Assembly: GCA_045567975.1 (NCBI GenBank)
Contig: JBJLBY010000016.1
Coordinates: 1-33,650, forward strand
Direction of reading: 5' to 3'
Source of the DNA: Candidatus Poseidoniales archaeon
GTDB taxonomy: Archaea > Thermoplasmatota > Poseidoniia > MGIII > CG-Epi1
DNA length: 33,650 nt
Shown piece after piece: positions 7,200-22,917 of the stretch. The translations under genes and the position numbers were made by a program. Numbering within the stretch: position 1 is the stretch's first letter; every line of letters begins with the position of its first letter. Under the pieces are notes generated by a model, which was given only the letters and a program-made list of their open reading frames with translations, was not told where the DNA came from and did no database searches.

Positions 7200-7843
7200 A
7201 ATCTTTTCAACTTATTTTTTGGGGCATATTCAACTAATACTCCACTACCCATAATTTCCGCATTTTTAACTTCCAGTTTAAGGATATTGGTTGCATCTTT
7301 GCACCCATTTCCTCCGGCTATAGTAGGTGTTTCAGTTCCACCTATAATCATGTTTGAAGTAAAAATATAAAGTTTAGTAAATAATTTTTTTTCCAAAAAG
7401 GACCACATTACAGTTTCTCCACCTTCTACTAGTATTTTGTTTATTCCTATTGCTTTGAGTTTAGGTAATAATTCTAGCAGATCTATTTGTTTAAGTCCGC
7501 AGTTTATTATTTCAATGTTTGGATTTTGTTTTACAGTAGTATTTTCTCCTACAGCTACTATGGTTCTACTCTCACCATCAAGTACATTTGAGTTCTTTGG
7601 AATCCTAAAGTTTGTATCCAATATAATTCTAGTCGGTTTTATTCCATTACTGTTTCTCAGTGTAAGTTTGGGATTGTCTTCAATTACTGTGCCAATACCT
7701 ACTAAGATAGCATCGCATTCACTTCTAAGTTTGTGCACTCTTTCAAAATCTTCTTCATTTGATAATGTTATTCTTTTTCTATCAGGTAAGGCTATTTTTC
7801 CGTCTGCAGATGCTGCACAATTTAGTATAATTTCAGGAAACAC
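7196..7843 (-). CDS. 2,5-diamino-6-ribosylamino-4(3H)-pyrimidinone 5'-phosphate reductase (RibD C-terminal-domain type, archaeal riboflavin pathway)
   Basis: ILNCAASADGKIALPDRKRITLSNEEDFERVHKLRSECDAILVGIGTVIEDNPKLT matches the RibD_C/archaeal reductase N-terminal region. ATGA overlap with purN. Confidence 0.8.
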   Translation of the reverse strand: MFPEIILNCAASADGKIALPDRKRITLSNEEDFERVHKLRSECDAILVGIGTVIEDNPKLTLRNSNGIKPTRIILDTNFRIPKNSNVLDGESRTIVAVGENTTVKQNPNIEIINCGLKQIDLLELLPKLKAIGINKILVEGGETVMWSFLEKKLFTKLYIFTSNMIIGGTETPTIAGGNGCKDATNILKLEVKNAEIMGSGVLVEYAPKNKLKRL

Positions 7844-7900
7844 GTTAATTCCAATGAGGCTTCATTAAAATATAATGGGTAGCTACTATTTTTTGAGTAA

Positions 7901-8731
7901 TCAATATTGTTCTTTGTTGTTTGGGAATTTCTTACTTTTAACATCGTTGACGTAAGCTTTCACAGCATTATCTATGTCTTTTGAAAGGTTTAGATATCTA
8001 CGTAAAAATCTAGGATTGAATTCATGTGTCATTCCCAACATGTCATGTAAAACTAATACTTGTCCATCAACATCTACTCCAGCTCCAATACCTATTACTG
8101 GAATTTTAACGGACTTACTAACTTTTTTGGCTAATTTTGCAGGTATTTTCTCTAGTACGATTGAGAAACAACCTGCCTTTTCTAATTCCTTTACATCATT
8201 TATCAATTTATTTGCTTCTTCATCCTCTTTAGCCCTGACAGTGTATGTTCCAAATTTGTAGATAGATTGAGGGGTAAGGCCAAGATGTCCCATAACTGGT
8301 ATACCTGCAGTCAGAATTCTTTCAATTGACTCCATAATCTCTGAACCTCCCTCTAATTTAACTGCATGAGCTCCAGATTCTTTCATAATTCTTATTGAAG
8401 ACTCTAGTGCTCTTTTTGAGTCACCCTGATAGGATCCAAAAGGTAGGTCAACAACTACTAAGGATCTTTTTACAGCCCTTACCACTGAGCTTGCGTGATA
8501 TATCATATTATCAAGAGTTATTGGTAGTGTAGTTTCATGACCCGCTATTACATTTGATGCAGAGTCTCCGACTAGTATAACGTCTATTCCAGCTTCATCA
8601 ACAATTCTGGCTAAGGTGTAATCATACGAAGTAAGCATTGATATTTTTTCTTTTTTTGCTTTCATTTCATGCAAAACATTTGTGGTTATTCTCTTATATT
8701 CTTTAATCATTTTGCTGCCTTTGTAGCACAT
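7901..8731 (-). CDS. panB: 3-methyl-2-oxobutanoate hydroxymethyltransferase (PanB)
   Basis: [36 protein letters not shown] and KLEGG motifs. An internal ATG at 8710 ([10 protein letters not shown]...) is an equally plausible start. Confidence 0.9.
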
Positions 8732-8768
8732 CTATTGGTAGGCCTATTTATTAAGCATTTTATCTTTT

Positions 8769-9182
8769 TTGAAGTTGTCACTAGCCCTAACTCTTTTAAT
8801 AGGGTTTTGCAACAGGGTAACTGTGCTTGGACATGAGTACGTTCCTATAGGGATATTTGCGCTTATTGCGCTGTCATTTCCTATACTGACATTTTTCATC
8901 GGAAGATTCTTCCGACCCAATAATGACAATGCTCTAAAAAATTCAACTTATGAGTGTGGAGAAATTCCAATGGGAGAGGCTCACATCCAGTTTCATTTTC
9001 AATATTATATGTTTGCAATCTTATTCGTAGTTTTTGATCTAGTTGTTGTCTTTTTAATTCTATGGGTTCAGGTCTATCTATCTTTGGCTGTGTCTGCAAA
9101 GGTAGTTATGCTATTATTTTTGCTTTTGACACTATTAGGTTTGTGGTATGCTTTTAGAAAAGAGGATGTGATATGGATATGA
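8769..9182 (+). CDS. nuoA: NADH-quinone oxidoreductase-like complex, subunit A
   Basis: YECGEIPMGEAHIQFHFQYYMFAILFVVFDLVVVFL is the NuoA/ND3 core. The ORF-track start is TTG; an in-frame GTG at 8823 would give a more typical 119-aa protein. Confidence 0.85.
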   Translation: MKLSLALTLLIGFCNRVTVLGHEYVPIGIFALIALSFPILTFFIGRFFRPNNDNALKNSTYECGEIPMGEAHIQFHFQYYMFAILFVVFDLVVVFLILWVQVYLSLAVSAKVVMLLFLLLTLLGLWYAFRKEDVIWI

Positions 9183-9820
9183 GCAGTAAAGGAATTAGGG
9201 GCAATCCGAAACTCAGACGGGGGGTAGGGTCCAAGACAACAGATTCAGACAAGATTATGGAAGATCCGCCAGCTGGTGATTGGCTTCTACTTCGTTCTGA
9301 CCAGTTTTTGAAATGGATTGATGATACTGTCTACAACATAGCTGAAGCTACTGGGGTAAGAGATGTGGTGAATAGAGTCACAAGACCTATTTTCAACTAT
9401 GCTCAAAGGTTCTCACCTCATCCGCTTCATTTTGGGATAATGTGTTGTGCGATAGAAATGGGTCAGGCCTCAGCGCCAGACCATGATATTGATAGACTAG
9501 GTTTAGTTTATAGGTCATCACCAAGACAATGTGATGTGTTGATTGTTAACGGACCAGTTTGTGAAAAATTAAGGCCTAAATTAAAAACATTATATGAGCA
9601 AATGCCAGAACCAAAGTGGGTCATTGCAATGGGAGAGTGTGCTATATCTGGTGGGCCATATTGGGATTCTTATTCCGTTGTTGCTGGTGCTGATACTTTT
9701 ATGCCTGTTGATGTCTATATTCCTGGCTGCCCAGTTAGACCTGAAGCTTTGATGCATGGTTTCTTAACATTACAGAAAAAGATTAGAGAAAAAGAACCTG
9801 GAATGTTTTTGAGGAGATAA
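9173..9820 (+). CDS. nuoB: Complex I subunit B (cluster N2 carrier) with an extended N-terminus
   Basis: [18 protein letters not shown] and IPGCPVRPE cysteine motifs. About 75 aa precede the SPHPLHFG region, compared with roughly 35-40 in typical NuoB. ATG 9179 (ATGA overlap with nuoA) is an alternative start. Confidence 0.9.
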
Positions 9821-9821
9821 A

Positions 9822-10301
9822 ATGGAAATAAAGGCCTTCATGAAGGAATTGTCGTCTGATAAAGGCGTTAGTGATATTTCTTTATTAAGGTCTAATGTAG
9901 TTAAGATAAATTTAGAAAGAGATAATTGTAAGGAATTTTTCACAAAAGTTAAAGATGGTTATGGGTTTGAGCACTGTTCTCTTATTAGTGCTATTGATAA
10001 TCAACCAGAGTTTGAACTAGTTTACCATTTTTCAGTTATTGATGGGTCTATATTTGTTGAGGATAATCCTGCAGCAGTTATGCTTGAAGTTCATATATTC
10101 CTTAAAAGGGATACTCCTACAGTTGATTCGATTTCAGATCTTTGGTTTGGGGCCAATTGGCATGAGAGAGAAGCATACGATTTGATGGGTATATACTTTA
10201 TAGGTCATCCAGATTTAAGAAGAGTTCTTCTTCCTGAAGGTTTTGCAGGCCATCCTCTTAGGAAAGATTATGTGTATGAAATACACGAGGAGGAGTGGTA
10301 A
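9822..10301 (+). CDS. nuoC: Complex I subunit C (30-kDa family)
   Basis: [29 protein letters not shown] motif. GAGGAG Shine-Dalgarno sequence upstream. Confidence 0.85.
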
Positions 10302-11395
10302 TGGCTGAGATGTGGATTAGTATGGGTCCGCAACACCCTATGACTCATGGTCTTTGGACTCTGAAGGTTAAAGTCGACGGCGAGACGATAACTGATGCAG
10401 ATCCTGAATTAGGTTATCTTCACCGTTCAGTTGAAAAGATGGGTGAACGTCGTAAGTACTTCATGAACACTACTTTGACAGATAGGTTGTGCTATGCTAG
10501 TTCTACAACTTGGACACATTGTTATGCACTTTCAGTTGAGGAGTTAATGGAAGTCGAAGTTCCTCAAAGGGCTAAATATATACGTACAATTATGCTGGAG
10601 TTGCAACGTTTAGCTTCACACTTGATGTGGGCTGGCGCTTACATGCCAGATTTAGGGCATATTACTGGGGCACTCTACTTCTGGAGAGATAGAGAATTAT
10701 TTCTAAATCTACTAGAGCTACCTAGTGGAAGCCGTTTACTTTACAATTACATTCGAATTGGTGGCGTTAAGAGAGATTTGCCTGACGGATTTATGGAGAA
10801 GACAGAGAGAGTTCTCAAATTATTTGAGCAAAGATTGGATGAATATGCAGATTTATTTGAAAATTCAAAGATTTTTAGGATGAGAACTGAGGACGTGGGT
10901 AACTTTTCAGCAGTTCAAGCAAAAAATTTAGGTATCACTGGACCCAATTTGAGAGGTTGTGGTACAAAGTTCGATTTTCGTGAGCACGATACATATGAAA
11001 TATATGAAGAGATTGATTGGGAAATTCAGACTAGGGAAGCTGGTCCTGGCTACGGAGATTGTTTCAGTAGATATATGGTTAGAATTGATGAAATGAGAGA
11101 GTCAGTTCGTATCATTCGAGAATGCTTTGCTAAAATGCCGGAAGGTCCTACTATGGCTTCTAGGGTTCCAGTTCGTGCTACTGGTGAGGCTTTTAGGCGT
11201 ACTGAAGATCCGAGAGGTGAGGCTTTGATGTACATTGTAGGAGATGGTAGTGATAGGCCATATCGTTGGAAAATAAAAAGTCCTATGTTCACTACAATCT
11301 CAGCTTGTCCACATTATTTGAAAGGGTACAAACTTGCAGATATTCCAGCTATAATGGGTAGCATAGATATTTGTATAGGAGAAACCGACAAATGA
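10295..11395 (+). CDS. nuoD: Complex I subunit D (49-kDa family)
   Basis: [28 protein letters not shown] and a C-terminal IGETDK. ATG at 10301 (TAATG overlap with nuoC) is the more likely start. Confidence 0.9.
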
Positions 11396-12624
11396 GTTTG
11401 TTCTCAGTTTGCAAGTCTATGGCAGAGTGGACTGCTAATTATATGCTAATTCCGGTTTTTGAGTTTCAGAGGAATCTGTTCCCACCATTCAGTCATCCCG
11501 CAGGTATGGTGGCTGACTGGTTAAGTACAGATGGAGGTCTTAACACACTAGCTTGGGTATTTGCAGTAAATATCGCATTTGCGGTTGGTATGACTAATCT
11601 GATTATTGTCATCCATTTAGAAAGGAAAATTGCAGCTAGGATACAAGATCGTAGAGGGCCTATGCTCTCTTTCAGATCATTTAGGGAACTAGGGGAAGAT
11701 TTAGCAGGTAATGCACCAACTTGGAGATTTAAAGAAAATTATGCTGGCATTGGTATTTTACAGAATATGGCCGATGGAATTAAAGCGATTACTAAGGAAT
11801 TGATTATACCTGCTAAAGCAGATAAATTTCTATTTACTATGGGTCCTATAATTTTTATTTCTTCATCTGTATTTTTACTAGCGCTTTTCCCTCTTTCAGA
11901 TAGGTTTGCAGCTTCATCTGCACCAGCAGGTTTAATGGTTATTATGGCTGCTTTCTCTATTGCACCAATTGGAGTTCTAACATCTGGTTGGGCTTCAAAT
12001 AATAAATATTCCATGATTGGTGGAATGAGATCTGCAGCTCAATTGATGTCCTATGAAATACCCTTGCTTCTAAGTATGGCTGGTGTTTTTCTCTTAGCTG
12101 GTTCTTTTGACCCCGTAGATATCGTTGAGCAACAAAGAGAATCAACATGGCTTTTTGGGTTGCCAATGTGGAATTTCATTCCTCAATTTATTGGATTTGT
12201 GGTCTTCATGATATGTATACTAGCTGAAGTAGAGAGAGTTCCTTTTGATTTGCCAGAGGCTGAAGCTGAGCTTGTTGAGGGTTGGACTACAGAATATAGT
12301 GGTATCCGTTATATGTTGTTTTTAGCAGCAGAATACATTCGGGGTTTTGCAGGAGCTGCAGTAGCTACAATATTGTTTTTAGGTGGCTGGGCTGGGCCTT
12401 GGCCAGTACCGCCAGAGATTTGGTTCTTGTTGAAAGTTTACTTGATTTTAATATTCTGGATTTTTATTAGATGGACAGTTCCACGTATAAGAACTGATCA
12501 AATTCTGGAGTTAGGGTGGAAAAAACTTCTGCCTTTATCTTTAATAAATATTCTAATAGTGATTCTTATGGTAGAGATTTATCCTTATTTCAGCGAAGTT
12601 GTTCAACTTCCGGAGGTATTTTAG
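11392..12624 (+). CDS. nuoH: Complex I subunit H (ND1 family) with an N-terminal extension and a ~30-aa insertion in the first cytoplasmic loop
   Basis: ERKIAARIQDRRGP ... LQNMADGIKAITKE and EVERVPFDLPEAEAELVEGWTTEYSG. I chose the ATG at 11392, which overlaps the nuoD stop as ATGA. The ORF track offers TTG at 11371. Confidence 0.9.
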   Translation: MSLFSVCKSMAEWTANYMLIPVFEFQRNLFPPFSHPAGMVADWLSTDGGLNTLAWVFAVNIAFAVGMTNLIIVIHLERKIAARIQDRRGPMLSFRSFRELGEDLAGNAPTWRFKENYAGIGILQNMADGIKAITKELIIPAKADKFLFTMGPIIFISSSVFLLALFPLSDRFAASSAPAGLMVIMAAFSIAPIGVLTSGWASNNKYSMIGGMRSAAQLMSYEIPLLLSMAGVFLLAGSFDPVDIVEQQRESTWLFGLPMWNFIPQFIGFVVFMICILAEVERVPFDLPEAEAELVEGWTTEYSGIRYMLFLAAEYIRGFAGAAVATILFLGGWAGPWPVPPEIWFLLKVYLILIFWIFIRWTVPRIRTDQILELGWKKLLPLSLINILIVILMVEIYPYFSEVVQLPEVF

Positions 12625-13401
12625 ATGAGTAGTGACAGAGACATTGGAATAATGGATATTCTTGTTAATCCTATGAAGGTTACTTTGAAGCAGTTTTTCA
12701 AGTCAACTTTTGGTAAGCCAACAACTGTGATGTACCCTCTTGAAAAGAGAGATCCTCCACCTACCTACAGAGGGATGAATGCAGTTATTTGGGATCTTTG
12801 CATTGGTTGTGGTATTTGTGGTGAAGTTTGTCCTAACAAATGTTTGAAAATGAAACCAACAGATTTGTCTGAAGAAGAAAAAGATAGGGCATGGTATGGT
12901 TCTCATGTGGCTAAAAGAAAGCATAAGGCTGAGAGGCCAGCAATTAACTTTGGTCACTGCATGTTTTGTGGTTTCTGTGAAGATTATTGTCCAACTGGTG
13001 CTATGACTATGACTGATTTTTATGAGCTTGCAGATACTACAAGAGAGGGTCTAATTTATCCTGCACGTTCTATGAAAGTTGATCTAGAAGAGTTACCACA
13101 ATTACCTTTAACCAATTATATGATGGAATCTCCGGTTTTGAATTCAGATACTTGCATAGGATGTAGCAAATGTGTTGATAATTGTCCAACTAATTGTATA
13201 ATTATGGATGAAGGCCCTCAGAATAAAGAATTGAAGAGTGGTAAAGTGAGAAATGTTGAAAACCCTTATTTTGATTATACTATTTGTATTGGTTGTTCAA
13301 CTTGTGTAAAAGTTTGCCCAGCTTCTTGCTTGCACATGGAGCCTATAAGCAATTCTGGTTCTAGTGGTCTTAAGGCCAAGGTATCTGAGACGGAGGCATA
13401 G
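12625..13401 (+). CDS. nuoI: Complex I subunit I fused to an additional C-terminal 2x[4Fe-4S] ferredoxin domain
   Basis: Four CxxCxxCxxxCP motifs start at Cys59, Cys112, Cys177 and Cys221. The first pair has the NuoI spacing. 258 aa, compared with roughly 150-180 for a usual NuoI. Confidence 0.9.
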   Translation: MSSDRDIGIMDILVNPMKVTLKQFFKSTFGKPTTVMYPLEKRDPPPTYRGMNAVIWDLCIGCGICGEVCPNKCLKMKPTDLSEEEKDRAWYGSHVAKRKHKAERPAINFGHCMFCGFCEDYCPTGAMTMTDFYELADTTREGLIYPARSMKVDLEELPQLPLTNYMMESPVLNSDTCIGCSKCVDNCPTNCIIMDEGPQNKELKSGKVRNVENPYFDYTICIGCSTCVKVCPASCLHMEPISNSGSSGLKAKVSETEA

Positions 13402-13404
13402 TCT

Positions 13405-13668
13405 TTGGATTTAGCAGTTGTAGTTTTCTGGGGCCTTGGCTCTTTGATTTTGGCGTCAGCTTGGGCTGTCGTAAATGGTAAAGATATTGTGCATTCAGTC
13501 GTATGGCTTTCAACTGTTTTTCTTTTGACCGCAGGTCTTTTTATTATTGCGGATGCTGAATTTCTAGCAGTTATTCAAGTATTGGTATATGTAGGTGCTA
13601 TCTCTGTGGTCATTATTTTTGGTATTATGCTTACAAAGAGGACTCTGAAAGGAGGAGAAAATGTCTGA
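13405..13668 (+). CDS. nuoJ1: Complex I subunit J, N-terminal half (TM1-3)
   Basis: AEFLAVIQVLVYVGAISVVIIFGIMLTK is the conserved NuoJ TM3 region. TTG start. Three hydrophobic helices. Confidence 0.75.
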   Translation: MDLAVVVFWGLGSLILASAWAVVNGKDIVHSVVWLSTVFLLTAGLFIIADAEFLAVIQVLVYVGAISVVIIFGIMLTKRTLKGGENV

Positions 13669-14473
13669 TAGAACAGTTATTTGGTTTAGAGATGTTTTTG
13701 TCATAGTTCTGGTAATTTACGTTGTTTCCTCGGTTGCTATGGCACCATGGGCTAATTTGAAACCAGATATGTCATATTCAGACTCTTGTCAAACTGGATG
13801 TCCGCCAGTCATGATTTTCCCAGAAAATGGTTATTATCATTACAAGGATGAACTAACTTTTGATTGGAATCCAATATCTATTGATTATTTGGTTGTTATA
13901 GAAGATGAAAACTCTGATATTATTTTGAGCGAGAATGTCACAGACATGACCACTTTCACAACTTCAAAAGTTGTAGCTGGAAATTATACCTCATCCGTTT
14001 TCTTCAAAGGAATTTCTGGAGCTTTTGATTCGGATGATCATCCTTTAGTTTCTTCCACAGAACATAAGTTAGAGTCTTCATCGAAAATAACTCTAATCTG
14101 GGCAGATACTGAAGTTACTTACAATATTCAGATTAAGTTGGTTGAAGATCCAGATATTCTCTCTGAATATCATCCAGTCGTGCATCAAATATCGGGTATT
14201 GAATCTACAAGTTACGAATATTCCGATTTTGATCCAGGTCATACTTACTTCTGGTCTGTGAGTGGTTCGGCCAACTTTACAGATGATATTGGTAATCGAC
14301 TTGGATTTGAATCTGAGATGTCCACAGACTCGGAACTCAATATAGATACTACAAAGTTTTTAGCTTTTGAATTATTCAATGATTGGGATTTACCGTTTAT
14401 TTTGTTAGGTGTCTTAATGGTCATTGCTTTACAGGCTGGTGTATTTTTAGCTAGGGAGGAAAAAGATGATTGA
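13661..14473 (+). CDS. nuoJ2: Complex I subunit J, C-terminal half (TM4-5) carrying a ~200-aa insertion between the two helices
   Basis: The C-terminus FLAFELFNDWDLPFILLGVLMVIALQAGVFLAREE matches the NuoJ C-terminal helix. N-terminal TM helix VFVIVLVIYVVSSVAMAPW. A strong GGAGGAG sits 5 nt upstream of an ATG that overlaps the nuoJ1 stop. Confidence 0.7.
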   Translation: MSDRTVIWFRDVFVIVLVIYVVSSVAMAPWANLKPDMSYSDSCQTGCPPVMIFPENGYYHYKDELTFDWNPISIDYLVVIEDENSDIILSENVTDMTTFTTSKVVAGNYTSSVFFKGISGAFDSDDHPLVSSTEHKLESSSKITLIWADTEVTYNIQIKLVEDPDILSEYHPVVHQISGIESTSYEYSDFDPGHTYFWSVSGSANFTDDIGNRLGFESEMSTDSELNIDTTKFLAFELFNDWDLPFILLGVLMVIALQAGVFLAREEKDD

Positions 14474-14768
14474 TCCCTTCCACTTCATAGTATTTTCATC
14501 ACTATTATTTATGATTGGAGCTTATGGCGTTATAAGAAATAAGAATTCAATAGTGGTTTTGATGTCTGTTGAGATAATGCTTACTGCTGCGAACATTAAC
14601 TTTGTTGCATTTTCTACATATTATAATGATTTAACTGGGCAAATCGTAGCACTCTTTGTCACAACAATAGCTGCAGCTGAAGTTGCTATTGGTTTAGCTA
14701 TTCTTTTAAGTCTTTTTAAGCAAAGAGATACAATTGAGTTAGATTTACTTAATAGGTTGAGGTGGTAG
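14466..14768 (+). CDS. nuoK: Complex I subunit K
   Basis: 100 aa with three TM helices. VEIMLTAANINFVAF and AAAEVAIGLAILL motifs. Confidence 0.9.
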   Translation: MIDPFHFIVFSSLLFMIGAYGVIRNKNSIVVLMSVEIMLTAANINFVAFSTYYNDLTGQIVALFVTTIAAAEVAIGLAILLSLFKQRDTIELDLLNRLRW

Positions 14769-14769
14769 C

Positions 14770-16944
14770 TTGGGTAGTCAAGAGCGTAATTCCAACATTT
14801 TTCTTAATAAAGTAATTATTTCTGCACTTTTAGCAATTGCTTTGTTGGCATTTTTGGTTATGCCAGGATCAAAAACACCAGTTCATTTCTCTTGGCTTGT
14901 CCCTGTCTTCCCTTTAATTTCTTTTGGATTAATACTAATATTTGGTATGCAAGATTCAGAGAGAGGTGGTTCTATTGCCTTATTAGGTGCTAGTTTTTCT
15001 TCAGTATTTTCATTATCTATAGCTTATGATGTTTTTATCAATAATGCAGTTCATGGTTCCTTCATAGAATCCACAAGAGTCTGGTTTAGTGGTTCAACCT
15101 ATTCTTTTGAGTTTGGAACTTATATCGATTCCTTAGCAGCCTTATTGCTGTTAGTAGTCGGTCTTGTATCTTACTTAATCGTAGTATTTTCGATTAGTTA
15201 TATGGATGATCAAGGAGATAGGCGTATTCGTTATTTTGCTGAAATTTCACTTTTCATTACAGCAATGTATGGTTTAACTGTAGCAAATTCGTTTTTGTTG
15301 ATGTTTATTTTCTGGGAGATAATGGGTGTTTGTTCTTATCTTTTAATTGGTTTCTGGTATGAGAAGCCTTCAGCATCATCTGCTGCAAAGAAGGCATTCA
15401 TAGTCACCAGAGTTGGTGATGTTTTCCTTCTTTTGGGTTTAGTTATACTGTATAATACATTTGGTACGCTACGTTACTCGGAACTTTTTGCAGACCCTCA
15501 AATTATAATGAACAATCTTGAGGAAGTAAAATGGGCAACTCTCTGTCTGTTTGGAGGTTCAGTTGGCAAGTCTGCTCAATTCCCATTACACGTATGGCTT
15601 CCGGATGCTATGGAAGGTCCTACAACAGTTTCAGCTCTAATACACGCAGCTACAATGGTGAAGGCTGGAGTTTTTTTGGTAGCAAGAGCTTTCCCATTGA
15701 TAGTTCATAGTCCAGATACAGCAATATACATAGCTGTAACAGGAGGTGTAACTGCACTCATAGCCGCGAGTATGGCCATGGTTATGTACGACATCAAGAA
15801 AGTCCTTGCGTATTCTACTATTTCACAATTAGGTTACATGTTTCTTGCATTAGGTACTGGAGCATGGGCTGTGTGGCATGCAGCTGAAGAAGGATTAGAG
15901 ATTCATTCACAAGGGTATATGGCAGGTTTGTTCCATTTGATGAATCATGCTTTTTTTAAGGCACTACTATTTTTGGGGTCTGGTGCAGTTATTCACTCAG
16001 TTCACACACAAGATATGCGTGAAATGGGTGGTCTTAGACAAACAATGCCTATTACCTCCACCACTATGGGTCTTGGAGTTTTATCTATAGCAGGAGTACC
16101 ATTCTTCTCAGGTTTCTGGTCTAAGGATGAAATATTGGAGGCTGTGCACTATAATGGTCATAGTGAAGGTATTTTTGGTGCATTATGGTGGATGGCATTG
16201 TTAACTGCAGGTATGACTGCTTTTTACATGACACGTCTTTGGATGATGACTTTCAGTGGTCCTTTGAAACGGACTATAGAAGAAATGGTTCCTGCAAAAG
16301 ATCATGACTCTTCAGGGAATTGGGTTTTGAAAAAGAGGAAATTAGCGACCCATAGTCATGAATCGCCTCTCATAATGACATTTCCTTTGATGATTCTAGC
16401 TTTTTTGGCAGTTTTCTCAGGTTTCTTCTTGTTTTTAGGCGAAGGCTTTGGAGGAAAAGTTTACTATGGCTCTCATCATTCCTCGGAGGGTAATATTCAA
16501 TGGGGAATTATCGATCATATTTTATCTTCTAATCTAACTTATTTGTCTGTCACAGTTGGTCTTACTGGAGTCACATTGGGTTACCTATTCTATAAGAGAG
16601 GCCCAGATGGTAATACAGCATTTTCGACTGATTTTGTCAAAAATAATTTTGTTCTAAGCTCGCTTCATACTTTCCTTTTAAACAGACTATATATGGCTAA
16701 ATTGTTTGATTGGATTGGGATGAGAACATGGGATACGTTCGCTTCAATTTGTGATTGGTTTGATAGGAACATTATTGATGGTATTGTCAATTTTACTGCA
16801 TTCAGTGCTCAGGAATTGGGTCGAATATTTAGGAAAACCACTTCAGGTTTTACAGGTCATTATGCATCATTAAGTATAGGTGGTCTTGGTTTCCTAGTAA
16901 TTATTACTAGAATTGTTATGCCTTTAATGGGGTGGTCACTTTGA
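14770..16944 (+). CDS. nuoL: Complex I subunit L (antiporter-like, with long C-terminal region)
   Basis: FWEIMGVCSYLLIGFWY and WLPDAMEGPTTVSALIHAATMVKAGVFL. 724 aa. TTG start preceded by GAGGTGG. Confidence 0.9.
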   Translation: MGSQERNSNIFLNKVIISALLAIALLAFLVMPGSKTPVHFSWLVPVFPLISFGLILIFGMQDSERGGSIALLGASFSSVFSLSIAYDVFINNAVHGSFIESTRVWFSGSTYSFEFGTYIDSLAALLLLVVGLVSYLIVVFSISYMDDQGDRRIRYFAEISLFITAMYGLTVANSFLLMFIFWEIMGVCSYLLIGFWYEKPSASSAAKKAFIVTRVGDVFLLLGLVILYNTFGTLRYSELFADPQIIMNNLEEVKWATLCLFGGSVGKSAQFPLHVWLPDAMEGPTTVSALIHAATMVKAGVFLVARAFPLIVHSPDTAIYIAVTGGVTALIAASMAMVMYDIKKVLAYSTISQLGYMFLALGTGAWAVWHAAEEGLEIHSQGYMAGLFHLMNHAFFKALLFLGSGAVIHSVHTQDMREMGGLRQTMPITSTTMGLGVLSIAGVPFFSGFWSKDEILEAVHYNGHSEGIFGALWWMALLTAGMTAFYMTRLWMMTFSGPLKRTIEEMVPAKDHDSSGNWVLKKRKLATHSHESPLIMTFPLMILAFLAVFSGFFLFLGEGFGGKVYYGSHHSSEGNIQWGIIDHILSSNLTYLSVTVGLTGVTLGYLFYKRGPDGNTAFSTDFVKNNFVLSSLHTFLLNRLYMAKLFDWIGMRTWDTFASICDWFDRNIIDGIVNFTAFSAQELGRIFRKTTSGFTGHYASLSIGGLGFLVIITRIVMPLMGWSL

Positions 16945-18848
16945 AGATTAAATTATTTTTTGCTTTACTATTTATTTCATTAATATTTAACCCAACTGAG
17001 GCTATAGCTGAAGAGCATACTGTTTACGTTGGCACTGATGACAATCCCTTTATTTTTAGTTCAGATAGCATTCGTATAGCGCCCGGAGATACAGTATTAT
17101 TTGTTTGGACTGCCGGTCAACCTCACAATGTAGTTCAGGTTTCTGATGCATCATCTATGGCTTATGTTGAGAATGGCGATGTAGTTATTCCATTCCGTTC
17201 AGGTGAACCAGTTGACGGTGTCACTTGGTTGTTGGATTCAAATTATACCCAAGAAGAAACTACACTCTATTACATCTGTGAACCTCATGTTGGAATGCAA
17301 ATGAGAGGTCAAATTATTATTGAAAGCCGACCTGAAATGACATTAGATATAGGCAATTTCCCTTGGCTCTCGTATCTTCTTATTTTCCCATTGATAGGGG
17401 CTGTTTGGACGTTTGCTTTCAGAGATAGTCCAAGTGCACCAAGATTAATAGCATTAGTGACGACTCTGTTTACTCTCGGGATTTCCATATTAGTATTTAT
17501 CAAGCAAGCAGATTTATTTGGTGACGGGAGCGGCCCAGGTTCAGGTTTCGTCTTGGTTGAGGAATATGTGTGGGCACCTAATTTAGGTATTTCTCTTCTT
17601 CTTGGTGTTGATGGTTTAAGTTCGCCAATGGTTTTACTTACTGGAATAATAGTGCCTTTGACAGTTTTATTTTCCTGGCATGAAAAAGAAAAACCAGCAT
17701 TATTCTTTTCACTTTTATTAATAATGCAAACAGCACTCTATGGTGTTTTTATTACTCTTGATTATTTTGTTTTTTATATTTTCTGGGAAGTTGTTTTGAT
17801 CCCTATGTTCTTTTTGATTGCAATATGGGGTGGGGACAACAGAAAATATGCTTCGGTTAAATTTTTCATTTATACTTTTACAGCATCAGTAATAATGCTT
17901 GTAGGTTTCATGGCACTCTACTTTGAGACTGGAGCTAATTCGTTCTCAATGATCGAAATTGCTAAGCAGAATACAGAATTTTCTAGAGACTTCCAAATTT
18001 GGGTTTTTGCAGCTTTGTTTATTGGTTTTGCAGTTAAAATACCGTCAGTACCTTGGCATACATGGCTACCTGATGCTCACGTTCAGGCTCCAACTGCAGG
18101 TTCGATTCTTTTGGCTGGTGTGATGCTTAAAATGGGGCTTTATGGACTTATGCGAGCTGCCTTGCCAGTATTGCCTTTGGGTGCCGAATACTTCATTCCG
18201 GTAATGGTTGCTTTAGCTATAATTTCAATTCTTTATGGTGCTGCATTGAGTTTGGGTCAGACAGATATTAAGAAATTGGTAGCTTATTCTAGTGTTTCAC
18301 ATATGGGAGTAGCCCTTTTGGGTGTTGCTACAATGACTGAATTAGGTTTTGCAGGAGCTGTATTCATGATGTTTGCCCACGGCTTACTTAGTCCAGCTAT
18401 GTTTATGGTTGCAGGTGTTCTGTTACACCAATTAGGAACTCGAGATATACCAAGGTTGGGGGGTCTTGCTCAAAGGCAGCCAACAACAACTGGTCTTTTT
18501 GTTGTAATTTTCCTAGGTAGTCTAGGTGTTCCAGGTATGGCTGTATTCGTATCTGAATTGTCAGTTTTCATAGCGTTTTTTGAATCTCATGGTTATCTCT
18601 TACTTCTACCTATATTTGGAATGGTACTTACTGCAGGATATCATCTCTGGGCTCTTCAGAGAGCTATATTTGGAATTGAAAGCGACAAAATAGATATTGA
18701 AAAGGTGCATGAGGCGCCATGGTATGAGATGTATCCAATGTTTATTCTAATAGTAATTGCAGTGTTCTTTGGCATTTTCCCACATTATTTAATGGACACA
18801 ATATCGGCATCATCTTATGACATTCTGGACTTCATGGGGGTTCTTTAG
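16932..18848 (+). CDS. nuoM: Fusion protein: signal peptide + type-1 copper cupredoxin domain + complex I subunit M (antiporter-like)
   Basis: Residues 1-135 contain the signal-like KIKLFFALLFISLIFNPTEAIA, QPHNVV, and YYICEPHVGMQMRGQIIIE (Cys-x2-His-x2-Met). Residues ~137-638 form a NuoM core with FWEVVLIPMFF, WLPDAHVQAPTAGSILLAGVMLKMGLYG. Single uninterrupted frame. Alternative TTG start at 16941. Confidence 0.9.
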   Translation: MVTLKIKLFFALLFISLIFNPTEAIAEEHTVYVGTDDNPFIFSSDSIRIAPGDTVLFVWTAGQPHNVVQVSDASSMAYVENGDVVIPFRSGEPVDGVTWLLDSNYTQEETTLYYICEPHVGMQMRGQIIIESRPEMTLDIGNFPWLSYLLIFPLIGAVWTFAFRDSPSAPRLIALVTTLFTLGISILVFIKQADLFGDGSGPGSGFVLVEEYVWAPNLGISLLLGVDGLSSPMVLLTGIIVPLTVLFSWHEKEKPALFFSLLLIMQTALYGVFITLDYFVFYIFWEVVLIPMFFLIAIWGGDNRKYASVKFFIYTFTASVIMLVGFMALYFETGANSFSMIEIAKQNTEFSRDFQIWVFAALFIGFAVKIPSVPWHTWLPDAHVQAPTAGSILLAGVMLKMGLYGLMRAALPVLPLGAEYFIPVMVALAIISILYGAALSLGQTDIKKLVAYSSVSHMGVALLGVATMTELGFAGAVFMMFAHGLLSPAMFMVAGVLLHQLGTRDIPRLGGLAQRQPTTTGLFVVIFLGSLGVPGMAVFVSELSVFIAFFESHGYLLLLPIFGMVLTAGYHLWALQRAIFGIESDKIDIEKVHEAPWYEMYPMFILIVIAVFFGIFPHYLMDTISASSYDILDFMGVL

Positions 18849-20341
18849 TGGACGCTACTCTCCTGTTTTTGCCAGAGCTGTTACTGATTGCAAGTATCAT
18901 TGCTATTCCAGCATTATACATTGCAACAGAGAATAATAAGTCATTTTCCATATGTGCGAATTTATCACTTTTTATATCGCTAATTGTACTAGTAACATTC
19001 TGGTTTTATCCTGAGAACTTATCTTTGGATAAAGGCAGTGATTCTTACTCTATTTATGATCATTTCAAGGTGGATGATTTTTCTCAGATATTTAAGATTA
19101 TTTTTGTTATGACTGCACTGGCAGTTTCATTGATAAGTTCTTCTTACCTAAGGGATGACGAGCCTCACCAAGCTGAATATTATCTTCTAATACTTTCAAG
19201 TACTCTAGGTATGTTATTAGTAGCATCAGCTACAGATTTTTTGACCTTGTTTTTAGGTATTGAAATTTCAGCTTTCAGTAGTTATGCACTTGTGGCTTTT
19301 AGAAAAACTGATGATCAATCCACTGAAGCAGGAGCAAAGTATTTGCTTATTGGTGCCTTCTCATCAGCCCTTACACTGTATGGAGTTTCATTGATTTATG
19401 CTTTAACTGGAACCACAAACTTTGAAGGAGTTAATGCCTTTCTTATTGGTTTGAATAATGGAGTTATTTCAGGTAATTTCAATGAAATTATATTTATTTC
19501 AAGTTTATTCATTCTTGCAGGTCTTGGATTTAAGGTTGCAATCGTACCTTTCCATGCGTGGGCGCCTGATGTCTATCAAGGTGCACCTACTCCAGTCACA
19601 GCTTTATTGGCAGCAGCAAGCAAAGCTATGGGTTTTGTTGCTTTATTTAGAGTATTTGCATTTACTCTTGAATCATTCTCTGATGAATGGATGTTAGTTA
19701 TAGGGATAATAGCCTTAGCCTCTATGACATTAGGTAATTTAATTGCAATTTCTCAGGAAGATATAGGTCGGATGTTGGCTTATTCATCTATAGCACAGGC
19801 AGGTTACGTTTTAGTGGCTTTTACGGCCTTATCAAACGATGCTATTTCTGGTGGTATCGCACATATCTTAGTTCATGCATTCATGAAAGGAGGTGCCTTT
19901 GTTGTTGTAGCTGCAGTGGGTGCGGCAGGATTAGGTTACAGTATAGATTCCTACAAAGGTTTAGCAAAACGGTCGCAATTACTTGCCCTTTCAATGACAA
20001 TCTGCTTGCTATCATTAGTAGGTATACCTCCTTTTGCAGGTTTCATCAGTAAGTTCCTTTTGTTTTATGGTGTTTTACAAGTAGGAATTTCCGATGGTAG
20101 CACATGGATAATTGCCTTAGTTGTTGCTGGTGTGCTTAACTCAGCTTTATCTCTTTACTATTACTTGAGAGTAATGAGGTATATGTATATCTATGATCCT
20201 ACAGATGACGATGTTAAGTTCTCAGATTCCATGCGTTATATTGCATTGTTTGCAGCTCTGTCTCTGTTCGTTATAATTCCTATTTTCTGGGAATCCTTGT
20301 ATAGTCTTTGTAAGGATGCAGCAATGGCATTGCTTTCATGA
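18848..20341 (+). CDS. nuoN: Complex I subunit N (antiporter-like)
   Basis: PFHAWAPDVYQGAPTPVTALLAAASKAMGF. 497 aa. The GTG start overlaps the nuoM TAG by 1 nt. Confidence 0.9.
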   Translation: MDATLLFLPELLLIASIIAIPALYIATENNKSFSICANLSLFISLIVLVTFWFYPENLSLDKGSDSYSIYDHFKVDDFSQIFKIIFVMTALAVSLISSSYLRDDEPHQAEYYLLILSSTLGMLLVASATDFLTLFLGIEISAFSSYALVAFRKTDDQSTEAGAKYLLIGAFSSALTLYGVSLIYALTGTTNFEGVNAFLIGLNNGVISGNFNEIIFISSLFILAGLGFKVAIVPFHAWAPDVYQGAPTPVTALLAAASKAMGFVALFRVFAFTLESFSDEWMLVIGIIALASMTLGNLIAISQEDIGRMLAYSSIAQAGYVLVAFTALSNDAISGGIAHILVHAFMKGGAFVVVAAVGAAGLGYSIDSYKGLAKRSQLLALSMTICLLSLVGIPPFAGFISKFLLFYGVLQVGISDGSTWIIALVVAGVLNSALSLYYYLRVMRYMYIYDPTDDDVKFSDSMRYIALFAALSLFVIIPIFWESLYSLCKDAAMALLS

Positions 20342-20598
20342 TAGATAAAGAGAGTAAAAAATATTTGCAATTTGAAAAAATGTGGGATGGTATTACACCC
20401 AAAGGAACAAATGTCAGTAAAAAGAATTCATTTCGTTCTCTCATGAAAAACAACTGTCAGCAAGAAGGTTTTGAATTCAGCAAAATAAATTCTTATTTAG
20501 TTTATTCTGGAGAATATAAGAATCTGGATGAAGATACAATAATTAAAAACGACATAAAATTAACAAGGCCACCTAGGCGTCATTTACGCAAGTTTTAA
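20338..20598 (+). CDS. Hypothetical 86-aa hydrophilic basic protein, translationally coupled to nuoN
   Basis: ATGA overlap with the nuoN stop. No TM segment and no recognised family. C-terminus TRPPRRHLRKF. Confidence 0.4.
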   Translation: MIDKESKKYLQFEKMWDGITPKGTNVSKKNSFRSLMKNNCQQEGFEFSKINSYLVYSGEYKNLDEDTIIKNDIKLTRPPRRHLRKF

Positions 20599-21572
20599 TT
20601 TTTATCATTGCCAAGTAATTCGTTTGTGAAAGCAATAGGTACTTGTTCGAGTAACTTTTTTTCAGGAGTATCTGGAACGTCCTTTAGGAATTTTCTTGCC
20701 ATTTCTTGCCAAGGTTCAATTAAGCTTTCAAAAATTTCTTGAGCGTGACTTATTTCTACATTTTCAATTAAAGCTTCACTATTACCATTATATACAAAAT
20801 CAGCGACCATTTCTCTGTATTGAGGATACTTGCCAAGTTTAGTCACAGGTAATGTCGGTATCTTCAGTGCTAAATCACCAACTGGTGTTTTTGTTATTAA
20901 TGAGTTTAGTAAGTCTAAGAAATCATCTGTAATTTGATATAATATACCTACACTTTCACCATATTTGTACATATTTGTTGATAAATCGGTTCTTGGAGAT
21001 ACTAGAGCGCCTAGTTCTGCAGCTGTACTGAAAAGTGCACCTGTTTTTCTCTTTATACGATGAAGATATACAGATTCACTGTAATTTTCTTTGTCAGTAA
21101 AATCTGCTATTGCACCCTCAGACAAATTTCTAACGCATTTTGCCAGAGATTTCCCAGTTTCAAGAGAAATAGCTCCATGAAGTGAACCAGTTGCAGCCAT
21201 CAAATCACCAACCAACACTGAAGTTCTTGGACCCAGTTCATTCCAGAGAGATGGTGCAGCTCGCCTAAATTTGTCTCCATCGATCCAATCATCATGTATT
21301 AGAGCACCACAGTGGACAAGTTCAAGGGCCATGCCACATTCAAAAGCTAGATGTGTGTCTCCTCCCAAGGCATCTGAAACTAACCTACACAGTACAGGTC
21401 TAAGTTTTTTACCGCCAGAAATTCCCTTTCGCATTAGATTACCAATTTCAGTAGGTTCTTTTGCAATCTCTCTTTCTATGTGATCAATGAATTCGCTTTT
21501 CACCAGTTTATAGTAATCACTAAGTTCATCTGAAGTAGCTAAATCAATTCTAGTTTTAATGTTATTATTCAT
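20595..21572 (-). CDS. trans-Polyprenyl diphosphate synthase (GGPP/longer-chain type)
   Basis: First Asp-rich motif LIHDDWIDGD and second motif ITDDFLD. Its ATG abuts the MenA stop (TAAATG). Confidence 0.85.
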   Translation of the reverse strand: MNNNIKTRIDLATSDELSDYYKLVKSEFIDHIEREIAKEPTEIGNLMRKGISGGKKLRPVLCRLVSDALGGDTHLAFECGMALELVHCGALIHDDWIDGDKFRRAAPSLWNELGPRTSVLVGDLMAATGSLHGAISLETGKSLAKCVRNLSEGAIADFTDKENYSESVYLHRIKRKTGALFSTAAELGALVSPRTDLSTNMYKYGESVGILYQITDDFLDLLNSLITKTPVGDLALKIPTLPVTKLGKYPQYREMVADFVYNGNSEALIENVEISHAQEIFESLIEPWQEMARKFLKDVPDTPEKKLLEQVPIAFTNELLGNDKN

Positions 21573-22868
21573 TTAAGTGTACTCCAATCCTAAAATCATC
21601 AGTATACCAGTTATTGCATGTATACCAATAGTGCCCCAATTAGCTATGGCTAATTCTCTTGTGTTGTAGCTTGTTATTACTTTGTAAGAGCAATATATCG
21701 CTATTGGTAGCGCAAGTAATGATAGCAAGGCACCTTCTGGAAGGATATTGTAAATGTGTAGTAGGTAAATTGAACTAAAAGCAGTAATCATGAGTACAAC
21801 ATATCCCCAGCTGGCCTTTTCCAATCCAAGAACTACAACTAGATGGTTTTTTCCAGCTATTTCATCAGAGTCTCGATCTGGGAATTGATTTATCCAAAGA
21901 ATGGCAGTTGTTAGTATACCTAGTGGTATTCCAAACATAAATGCATCCCAATTATGAATTCCACTCATTGCAAATATAGCCCCCATAGTCATTAATGGAC
22001 CATAGTTCAGTCCAATTAGTATTTCTCCGAGCCCTTTTCTAGCTACCAGCCTGAGCGGATATCCAGTGTAGAAGTATGCTGAAAACGCTCCAGCTAATCC
22101 ATAGTATAATAGTTCAAATTTATTGTCACCAAGAGTAGACATAACGCCAATTCCCATCAAACCTGCAAGACCCAAGAAAACAGTTGCAAGGTTGAAAAGT
22201 TGTTTTTCTGTTATCAATCCCAATTCGATTGCTCTACTTCCACCAGATAATTGAAGAAAATAGTCATTATTGATTTGATCTGTTCCACTAGTCCAATCAA
22301 AATAATCATTGTAAGTATTAGCAGCTAGGTGGAGAAAAGATCCCCCTAATATTACATATATAAATGTCATCCACTCCATACTAATCATATCTTGGTTTAT
22401 TGCCCAAACCACACTTGCTATGATTGGTATCCATGTAGCGCTCAGAAATGGTAATCTTGTGATTGCTACTATAGAAATAAATCTAGTTAGTAGTGAAGTA
22501 TGAGGCATTGCGTCCTCAGGTGAGACGTCTACGAGTTCTTTAGTTCTTCCACAATAACCTACATGTTTTCCTTTCTTGATTGTGGCAGTTACTCTGAATT
22601 CAGCTGCAAATTTAGTTCCATCCTTTCTGATAAAGGTGGTTTTAGTACTATAGCCATTTTCATTTTCTCTAGCTTTTTTGAGCCAGTTAGCTACATGTCC
22701 TAGAACGACCAAACCTGGTGAGAAAAGAGATACTCTTTTTTTATCAACAATTTCTTCAGCAGAGTATCCGAATAGTTTTTCAGCGTTTTTATTGAACGTT
22801 TCGATTCTTCCTTCAGTATCGCATGTTATTACACTTACTATTCGGTCTGCTTCAGCTTGGTCAGACAT
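21573..22868 (-). CDS. menA: PAS domain fused to a 1,4-dihydroxy-2-naphthoate polyprenyltransferase (MenA, UbiA superfamily)
   Basis: Residues ~8-112 carry the PAS pattern ITCDTEGRIETFNKNAEKLFGYSAEEIVDKK...FIRKDGTKFAAEF. The membrane part carries NTYNDYFDWTSGTD and INQFPDRDSDEIAGKNHLVV, which match the two MenA Asp-rich motifs. Confidence 0.8.
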   Translation of the reverse strand: MSDQAEADRIVSVITCDTEGRIETFNKNAEKLFGYSAEEIVDKKRVSLFSPGLVVLGHVANWLKKARENENGYSTKTTFIRKDGTKFAAEFRVTATIKKGKHVGYCGRTKELVDVSPEDAMPHTSLLTRFISIVAITRLPFLSATWIPIIASVVWAINQDMISMEWMTFIYVILGGSFLHLAANTYNDYFDWTSGTDQINNDYFLQLSGGSRAIELGLITEKQLFNLATVFLGLAGLMGIGVMSTLGDNKFELLYYGLAGAFSAYFYTGYPLRLVARKGLGEILIGLNYGPLMTMGAIFAMSGIHNWDAFMFGIPLGILTTAILWINQFPDRDSDEIAGKNHLVVVLGLEKASWGYVVLMITAFSSIYLLHIYNILPEGALLSLLALPIAIYCSYKVITSYNTRELAIANWGTIGIHAITGILMILGLEYT

Positions 22869-22892: not shown

Positions 22893-22900
22893 TATTTAAA
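22893..22900 (-). promoter_or_regulatory. Candidate TATA box TTTAAATA for the menA-polyprenyl synthase transcript
   Basis: A consensus octamer on the minus strand, centred ~28 nt upstream of the PAS-MenA ATG (22868). This implies a leaderless or very short-leader mRNA. Confidence 0.4.
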
Positions 22901-22917
22901 ACATCCACTTATAATGC

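Follow-up and report, generated by a model that had tools for sequence, protein, structure and literature searches.

Can a sensor domain built into a membrane prenyltransferase control the making of a respiratory quinone? The question is raised by a gene on the minus strand of a 33,650-nucleotide stretch of DNA (contig JBJLBY010000016.1; called the window here) from a Candidatus Poseidoniales archaeon of Marine Group III (MGIII). The original prediction, made from the letters of the window, read this gene as a PAS sensor domain fused to the menaquinone prenyltransferase MenA, in an operon with a polyprenyl synthase and convergent on the nuo (complex I) operon. We found that the PAS domain is integral to the enzyme and under strong constraint and that, judged by its sequences, the clade is a distinct MenA-like subfamily whose carriers are usually without any known naphthoate pathway. 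The best explanation, to which we assign a rough probability of 0.45 on the strength of sequence comparison and a structural model, is a quinone prenyltransferase module gated by its PAS sensor, with a head group that would be salvaged or come from an undescribed route.

21573..22868, minus strand: coding sequence of the PAS-fused MenA/UBIAD1-like prenyltransferase, 431 aa plus stop, ATG start
22533..22841, minus strand: PAS domain, residues 10–112, by Pfam, NCBIfam, Foldseek and conservation
22821..22823, minus strand: Cys16 codon, strand A-beta, motif ITCD, at least 90% conserved
22695..22697, minus strand: His58 codon, helix F-alpha, aligned with the proximal haem ligand of E. coli DosP
22551..22553, minus strand: Cys106 codon, strand I-beta, motif GYCG, at least 97% conserved in 74 fusions
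22464..22532, minus strand: linker and pre-membrane helix, residues 113–135, poorly conserved save Pro122

The open reading frame (ORF) is uninterrupted, and a check for a frameshift or internal stop that would split the PAS part from the prenyltransferase part found none. The predicted fusion thus stands as an intact ORF with Pfam and NCBIfam domains above cut-off and with both of the quoted motifs. Its first ~112 residues, described as PAS-like, matched Pfam PAS_9 (PF13426, residues 12–103) with 38.7 bits against a cut-off of 27, Pfam PAS (PF00989, residues 11–108) with 28.6 against 22.6 and NCBIfam sensory_box (TIGR00229) with 47.4 against 22.9. The AlphaFold2 secondary structure of this part is a five-stranded antiparallel sheet (strands 11–16, 21–25, 73–80, 86–98 and 101–111) with flanking helices C–F (27–33, 37–40, 46–49 and 52–68). 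In Foldseek comparisons with solved PAS domains the probability was 1.00 and the target TM-scores were 0.70–0.82; the haem PAS of EcDOS ranked first, followed by Aer, CPS_1291, NifL and FixL, and light-oxygen-voltage (LOV) domains were also among the matches. A PDB search with a 68-residue PAS fragment gave chance matches only.

The PAS domain is under strong constraint. Among 74 full-length fusions, the PAS domains of MGIII and bacterial proteins are 59% identical, the membrane domains 51% and the linkers 29%; by this measure the PAS domain equals or exceeds the catalytic domain in conservation. At 26 of the 103 PAS positions conservation across archaea and bacteria reached at least 97%, including D17, E19-G20-R21, R45-V46-S47, F49-S50-P51-G52, W62-L63, F79, G104, C106 and G107. 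Mean nucleotide differences at codon positions 1, 2 and 3 of the PAS region were 0.18, 0.09 and 0.51 in 17 MGIII loci, a codon pattern from which we conclude that the frame is under purifying selection. Contigs from the RNA libraries of three studies, at least 99% identical, cover the PAS part (22648–22847), the junction between PAS and transmembrane (TM) parts (22412–22585), the membrane part and the synthase. They are short and show presence in RNA libraries, not a transcript start, and their backing for translation of the PAS part is weak because DNA carry-over is possible. The full-length AlphaFold2 model has a mean pLDDT of 96.5 and a pTM of 0.93, and its pLDDT stays above 96 through the linker, with no weak stretch between the domains. 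We take this to mean that the PAS domain is held in a fixed arrangement with the membrane domain, on the cytoplasmic side. UbiA active sites open on that side.

21576..22463, minus strand: UbiA-superfamily membrane domain, residues 136–431 (PF01040; UBIAD1 fold match)
22278..22319, minus strand: first Asp-rich motif, N184-x2-N187-D188-x2-D191-x5-D197, with N184, N187, D188, D191 and D197 invariant in 28 fusions
21864..21890, minus strand: second Asp-rich motif, N327-QF-P330-D331-x3-D335, with N327, P330, D331 and D335 invariant

The membrane domain belongs to the UbiA superfamily, with 90.2 bits to Pfam UbiA (PF01040, residues 147–406; cut-off 34.2) and fold matches to UBIAD1, digeranylgeranylglyceryl phosphate (DGGGP) synthase, AfUbiA and ApUbiA. 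The sequences quoted as MenA-type motifs, NTYNDYFDWTSGTD and DRDSDEIAGKNHLVV, are residues 184–197 and 331–345, and an invariant SGGSR motif lies in the loop between the first Asp-rich motif and the next helix. In NCBIfam the top-scoring models are MenA equivalogs, and each falls far below its cut-off: NF004751 with 116 bits against 264, TIGR02235 with 111.5 against 225 and TIGR00751 with 69 against 102. The fusion shares with MenA (TIGR00751; PRK06080 models) its branch of the superfamily and the motifs N-x-x-[N]-D-x-x-D-x5-D and N-x-x-P-D-x3-D, and differs from it in the low scores, the N-terminal PAS, the SGGSR loop and the lack of a detected pathway to 1,4-dihydroxy-2-naphthoate (DHNA) in the genome. 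The assignment to the MenA/UBIAD1 branch with intact motifs therefore holds, but the name MenA goes too far, because the scores are below cut-off, neither DHNA nor futalosine pathway genes were found, and a canonical MenA lies alongside the fusion in three of five bacterial carriers. Among solved structures, human UBIAD1 (8djk_B; sequence E 8.2e-9, target TM-score 0.80) comes nearest; it is only 20% identical, has no PAS and is regulated through binding of HMG-CoA reductase. UBIAD1 makes menaquinone-4 (MK-4) from pre-formed naphthoquinone, that is, from a head group not made by the cell, a precedent that by analogy would fit a salvage scenario. The other two UbiA paralogues of the assembly are haem O synthase (beside CoxB) and DGGGP synthase, so the fusion is the sole candidate quinone prenyltransferase found there.

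20595..21572, minus strand: dedicated polyprenyl diphosphate synthase, 325 aa (PF00348, 130.6 bits)
22893..22901, minus strand: TATA-like box TTTTAAATA, 24 nt upstream of the PAS ATG
8769..20598, plus strand: convergent nuo (complex I) operon with an 86-aa tail ORF, as context

The neighbourhood is as had been described. The fusion stop and the synthase start abut as TAAATG (TAA-ATG, minus strand, 21570–21575), and the 3' end of the synthase gene shares 4 nt (20595–20598) with the plus-strand tail of the nuo operon, so the two are convergent. That tail is an ORF of 86 aa (20338–20598, plus strand) which overlaps the nuoN stop (ATGA) and, by the same 4 nt, the synthase gene; it had no significant Pfam match. 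In each MGIII genome that we checked there are exactly two polyprenyl synthases. The one paired with the fusion carries the motifs DDWID and DDFLD, with Gly/Ala at -5/-4 before DDWID, and the other, which resembles geranylgeranyl diphosphate (GGPP) synthases, has Phe at -5 before DDVMD. Phe at -5 is the chain-length rule's pattern for short-chain GGPP synthases, and because the partner has Gly/Ala instead, its product is probably longer than C20. Of the 25 loci assigned to MGIII, 21 retain fusion and synthase as a pair; three Chloroflexota loci and one Myxococcales locus have a comparable pair accompanied by a MarR regulator. Bacterial neighbours of the fusion include regulators (MarR, TetR), ABC transporters, an EamA transporter and a GNAT protein, among others; neighbourhood clustering of 80 loci revealed no conserved head-group genes nearby. 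In the window, and in 15 of the 16 further MGIII loci that we examined, a TTTTA[AT]ATA box stands 24–32 nt upstream of the PAS ATG; we infer an archaeal promoter for a leaderless or short-leader mRNA, separate from carAB upstream.

The fusion is not confined to the window. Among species-representative genomes a scan returned 571 related loci. We examined the best 80, all of them full-length (query residue ~1–12 to 428–430); they came from MGIII, Poseidoniales-labelled metagenome-assembled genomes (MAGs), Marinimicrobia, many Anaerolineae and other Chloroflexota, and Myxococcota, and 77 had a clean fusion ORF. Near-identical homologues are records named Marine Group III euryarchaeote, including CG-Epi1 and CG-Epi2, and full-length matches at 58–83% identity occur in three genera of the window's family. 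In a search of 1.84 billion cluster representatives, ~25 clusters had collinear PAS and UbiA parts at 31–52% identity, with named members from Marinimicrobia, Chloroflexota/Dehalococcoidia, Micrarchaeia and 'Euryarchaeota' MAGs; several clusters of the ESM Atlas have the same domain pair. By these matches the fusion is not rare, occurring in hundreds of genomes of at least five phyla. The remark that it was not recognised as a described architecture thus holds for the literature, where searches for PAS with MenA/UbiA, MGIII with quinone and Marinimicrobia with MenA found no paper on it, but not for the databases, where it is not unusual and bears the automatic name 'PAS domain-containing protein' or 'MenA'.

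We built a quick maximum-likelihood tree from the membrane domain; its canonical MenA row from locus L111 has a branch of length 10 and probably stems from a wrongly chosen ORF. The tree placed MGIII, forms with an EF-hand pair and Marinimicrobia in one clade with 100% support, apart from a Chloroflexota/Myxococcota group, and placed the PAS-less homologue of a sister MGIII family elsewhere. Because these three share a clade, the tree points to transfer between marine archaea and bacteria, in either direction. The EF-hand variant, 540–551 aa long and found in Poseidoniales-labelled MAGs, has the pair ahead of PAS-UbiA (L070, L094 and L096, about 7686–9314; protein P0123), so that calcium may be a further input beside the PAS domain. 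Other MenA-like relatives have an N-terminal domain like PNPOx (a flavin mononucleotide split barrel) instead of the PAS (P0148, P0153, P0246) or unassigned N-terminal extensions of 100–200 aa (P0156, P0172, P0180, P0193). A second MenA-like paralogue of 372–445 aa (L027:1701-2816, minus strand; L026), very divergent (30–34% identical) and with a very long branch in the tree, is present in some nine genomes of the family, including three with no detected fusion; it was not found in the window's genome.

Where would the head group come from? The search for men and futalosine genes elsewhere in the window's genome, an assembly of 750 kb in 56 contigs, found no MenB above cut-off, no MenD and no MqnA/D. 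We surveyed 46 genomes of the class, which are related to one another and incomplete; a zero in the counts means that the gene was not found in the genomes searched. No MenB reached the cut-off of 342.7 bits in any of the 46, the best MGIII score being 159 bits. MqnA/D was found in 0 of 29 MGIII genomes and in 16 of 16 genomes of two MGII-like families; the PAS fusion (E <= 1e-10) was found in 31 of 36 genomes of the window's family and in 0 of 22 of the two MGII-like families. Within Poseidoniia, the fusion and the futalosine pathway are complementary by this count. Chorismate synthase (AroC) followed the same split, with 0 of 29 MGIII genomes and 16 of 16 of the MGII-like families, and MGIII therefore looks auxotrophic for aromatic compounds. 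The sister MGIII family, with genomes of 2.6–2.9 Mb, carries the PAS-less MenA-like gene (L024, L025) and a MenG/UbiE above cut-off (L108, G037:C4:70991-71659); MenB, MqnA/D and AroC were not found in it.

Carriers outside MGIII were similar for the naphthoate routes. In four Poseidoniales-labelled, MGII-like carriers, three of them with the EF-hand pair, neither MqnA/D nor MenB was found, and among five bacterial carriers MenB was present in the Myxococcales genome only and MqnA/D in none. In all, 36 of the 37 carrier or same-genus genomes tested were without both MenB and MqnA/D. These missing genes, together with scores below cut-off in genomes that also hold a canonical MenA, are the grounds for a distinct subfamily. 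The Anaerolinea and Chloroflexia genomes (G061, G062; L111, L112) have a canonical MenA of ~223 bits, and neither MenB above cut-off nor MqnA/D was found in them. AroC is present in the four MGII-like carriers and in one Marinimicrobia genome, and we rejected loss of chorismate as a family-wide correlate of the fusion on that account. The AroC matches of three fusion-carrying MGII-like genomes each have one in-frame stop (TAA or TAG):

G067:C148:301-1344, AroC match with in-frame stop
G068:C19:5708-6751, AroC match with in-frame stop
G069:C5:7142-8185 and G069:C3:154-1197, AroC matches with in-frame stop

Homogentisate was another candidate head group. Of 27 genomes of the genus, 23 have 4-hydroxyphenylpyruvate dioxygenase (HPPD, ~465 bits), which the other families of the class do not. 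The gene adjoins a divergent HmgA-like gene (~80 bits, cut-off 510), the pair being present in 22–23 of the 27 and not found in the window's own incomplete assembly.

L120, L121, L122 (for example G015:C22:7194-9400): loci of the HPPD/HmgA-like pair

The adjoining HmgA-like gene suggests tyrosine breakdown, and HPPD is present in only two of the five bacterial carriers. We therefore set homogentisate aside, leaving it a low probability in MGIII only.

What might the PAS domain sense? We aligned a profile of 30 PAS domains by hhalign with E. coli DosP (residues 1–140) and with Aer. The DosP alignment had a probability of 91% and an E-value of 9.4e-7 and placed His58, on helix F-alpha, opposite the histidine of 'PAH', the proximal-ligand position. 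This residue is His69 in the current record, which we take to be His77 of the literature, the proximal ligand; the same 8-residue offset would map Met87 to the distal Met95. The NCBIfam DosP model also matches the PAS part (5.4e-5), and His58 is present in at least 90% of the 30 diverse sequences, with Tyr in 3. The haem PAS domains of DosP (EcDOS) and FixL, the top structural and profile matches, have a phosphodiesterase or kinase as output, whereas the output here is a biosynthetic membrane enzyme and the haem binding is putative. With Aer the probability was only 45%. The flavin contacts of Aer are Asn85 (hydrogen bond to the isoalloxazine), His53, Arg57 and Arg115 (PMC9668731); the fusion has Phe79 (invariant), Arg45, Phe49 and Thr109 at these positions and keeps only Trp70 (Trp62) and Gly28 (Gly20). 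An alignment with NifL also sets Phe79 opposite an Asn. Since the DosP alignment is good and the flavin contacts are replaced, a haem-type or thiol-based redox cofactor is our best guess. In ArcB, redox-active cysteines of a PAS domain report the quinone pool (PMC11620690). The fusion also has two conserved cysteines, Cys16 and Cys106 on the neighbouring strands A-beta and I-beta, which from PAS topology would lie close together; ArcB acts on transcription via a phosphorelay, whereas here the output would be the quinone-forming enzyme itself. Sensory control by the PAS domain is plausible. Control of menaquinone synthesis at the enzyme level, not by transcription, has a parallel in MenD, which is under allosteric feedback by DHNA (PMC9835592); this is another enzyme and step, with no fused sensor domain.

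From the observed architecture, conservation, missing pathways and structural model we infer the substrate class, respiratory role, cofactor and gating as follows. A cytoplasmic PAS domain would be docked on a nine-helix prenyltransferase of MenA/UBIAD1 type in one polypeptide, forming with the abutting synthase a two-gene module with its own promoter. The synthase would supply a chain that the fusion joins to an aromatic head group, giving a membrane quinone for the neighbouring complex I. The head group would come from neither known naphthoate route and, in MGIII, not from chorismate at all; as none of these was found, it may be imported (as DHNA or naphthoquinone, in the manner of UBIAD1) or made by an undescribed route. 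The PAS domain may bind a redox-active cofactor or ligand and gate prenyl transfer by oxygen or redox state. This proposal draws on catalytic motifs that are intact and a UbiA fold closest to that of UBIAD1, on the fusion being the only candidate found in the assembly, and on the distribution of MqnA/D (16 of 16 in the fusion-less MGII-like families versus 0 of 29 in MGIII and 0 of 4 MGII-like carriers). It draws also on the dedicated synthase pair (21 of 25 MGIII loci), on the PAS domain (59% conservation versus 51% for the TM part, pTM 0.93, DosP/EcDOS matches with His58), on the conserved TATA box just upstream of the PAS ATG and, weakly, on the RNA-library contigs.

Several observations weigh against this proposal. 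The source assembly is only 71% complete. No MenG/UbiE-type methyltransferase was found in 28 genomes of the window's genus; the sister family has it in 2 of 2, and the MGII-like families in 15 of 16 at E <= 1e-25, below cut-off. A canonical MenA (221–224 bits) stands alongside the fusion (90–100 bits) in three of five bacterial carriers (Anaerolinea, Chloroflexia and Myxococcales), and some genomes of the genus without the fusion carry the divergent second paralogue. In the hhalign alignment the FG loop that holds the distal Met of DosP is deleted from the fusion PAS, and His58 is Tyr in 3 of 30 close relatives and missing from more divergent fusions. The very high PAS conservation and rigid docking would equally fit a constitutive structural or substrate-binding role.

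This last point leads to the strongest alternative, which we hold to be unlikely but to deserve serious weight: the PAS domain may be non-sensory, serving as a permanent cap, a site that binds and delivers the aromatic substrate, or a surface for dimerisation or docking (for example of the synthase), on an enzyme that is constitutive. Signal-input domains are seldom as conserved as the catalytic domain, or more so, as this one is; the two domains are placed confidently against each other (pTM 0.93), the elements of the pocket are lined by aromatic and hydrophobic residues that do not vary (F33, F49, W62, F79, Y105), and the flavin contacts of Aer are replaced. Relatives at 38–40% identity do without a PAS domain, however, so it is not needed for catalysis in the clade. 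The EF-hand pair ahead of the PAS and the PNPOx-like domain in its place look like an interchangeable regulatory or cofactor slot, and the His and Cys residues conserved at positions of the cofactor type point to redox chemistry.

It is doubtful, more so than a non-sensory PAS, that the fusion is a paralogue with another prenylated aromatic product, such as a second quinone or a protective lipid, while MGIII obtains its respiratory quinone otherwise. The family may have another product in view of the canonical MenA (221–224 bits) beside it in the Anaerolinea, Chloroflexia and Myxococcales carriers, and its scores below every MenA equivalog cut-off and its distinct invariant SGGSR loop would agree with this. 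But no other MenA-type gene was found in MGIII (apart from the divergent paralogue of some genomes), in the four MGII-like carriers or in two Marinimicrobia; within the class the fusion stands in place of the futalosine pathway, not alongside it, and it lies beside complex I with a dedicated long-chain synthase.

A bolder form of the gated-module proposal, which we judge improbable, makes the whole PAS-fused UbiA clade the prenylation step of a third respiratory-quinone route. The head group would then come from neither the classical Men nor the futalosine pathway in MGIII, some MGII, SAR406 and many Chloroflexota, and the PAS domain, with haem or thiol, would make the enzyme an oxygen or redox sensor.

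Light control, which had been raised in the original prediction, is very improbable. PAS_9 is the best Pfam model, LOV domains are among the Foldseek matches, and close relatives are named after MGIII groups described from surface waters, all of which would suit a blue-light LOV or other flavin photoreceptor controlling quinone synthesis in an archaeon of the sunlit ocean; yet all four Aer contacts (Asn85, His53, Arg57, Arg115) are replaced, the position of Asn85 by an invariant Phe that NifL too sets opposite an Asn, and the family is common in Anaerolineae of dark habitats. We give practically no credence to an annotation or assembly artefact, or to a true start downstream of the PAS part, for which an internal Met121 exists, given the same collinear ORF in 77 of 80 independent loci, the PAS codon-position pattern (0.18/0.09/0.51), the conserved TATA box upstream of the PAS ATG and the RNA-library contig across the PAS/TM junction.

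The gene and its conserved fusion were already in databases, and we found no study of the fusion. New here are the failure against MenA cut-offs, the missing MenB and MqnA/D, the missing AroC in MGIII, the co-occurrence with canonical MenA, the conservation and docking of the PAS domain, and the match of His58 to DosP. MGIII, MGII and SAR406 are abundant, uncultured ocean heterotrophs whose respiratory quinones, to our knowledge, have never been measured directly. A prenyltransferase in place of the futalosine pathway in one archaeal class suggests either that these cells depend on other plankton for quinone precursors or that they have an undescribed head-group pathway. Dependence on precursors released by plankton would, if true, be a new metabolic dependency in the sea. 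The quinone composition of bacteria changes with oxygen supply, and a sensor-type domain fused to a membrane biosynthetic enzyme would, if true, be a rare case of direct control at the enzyme.

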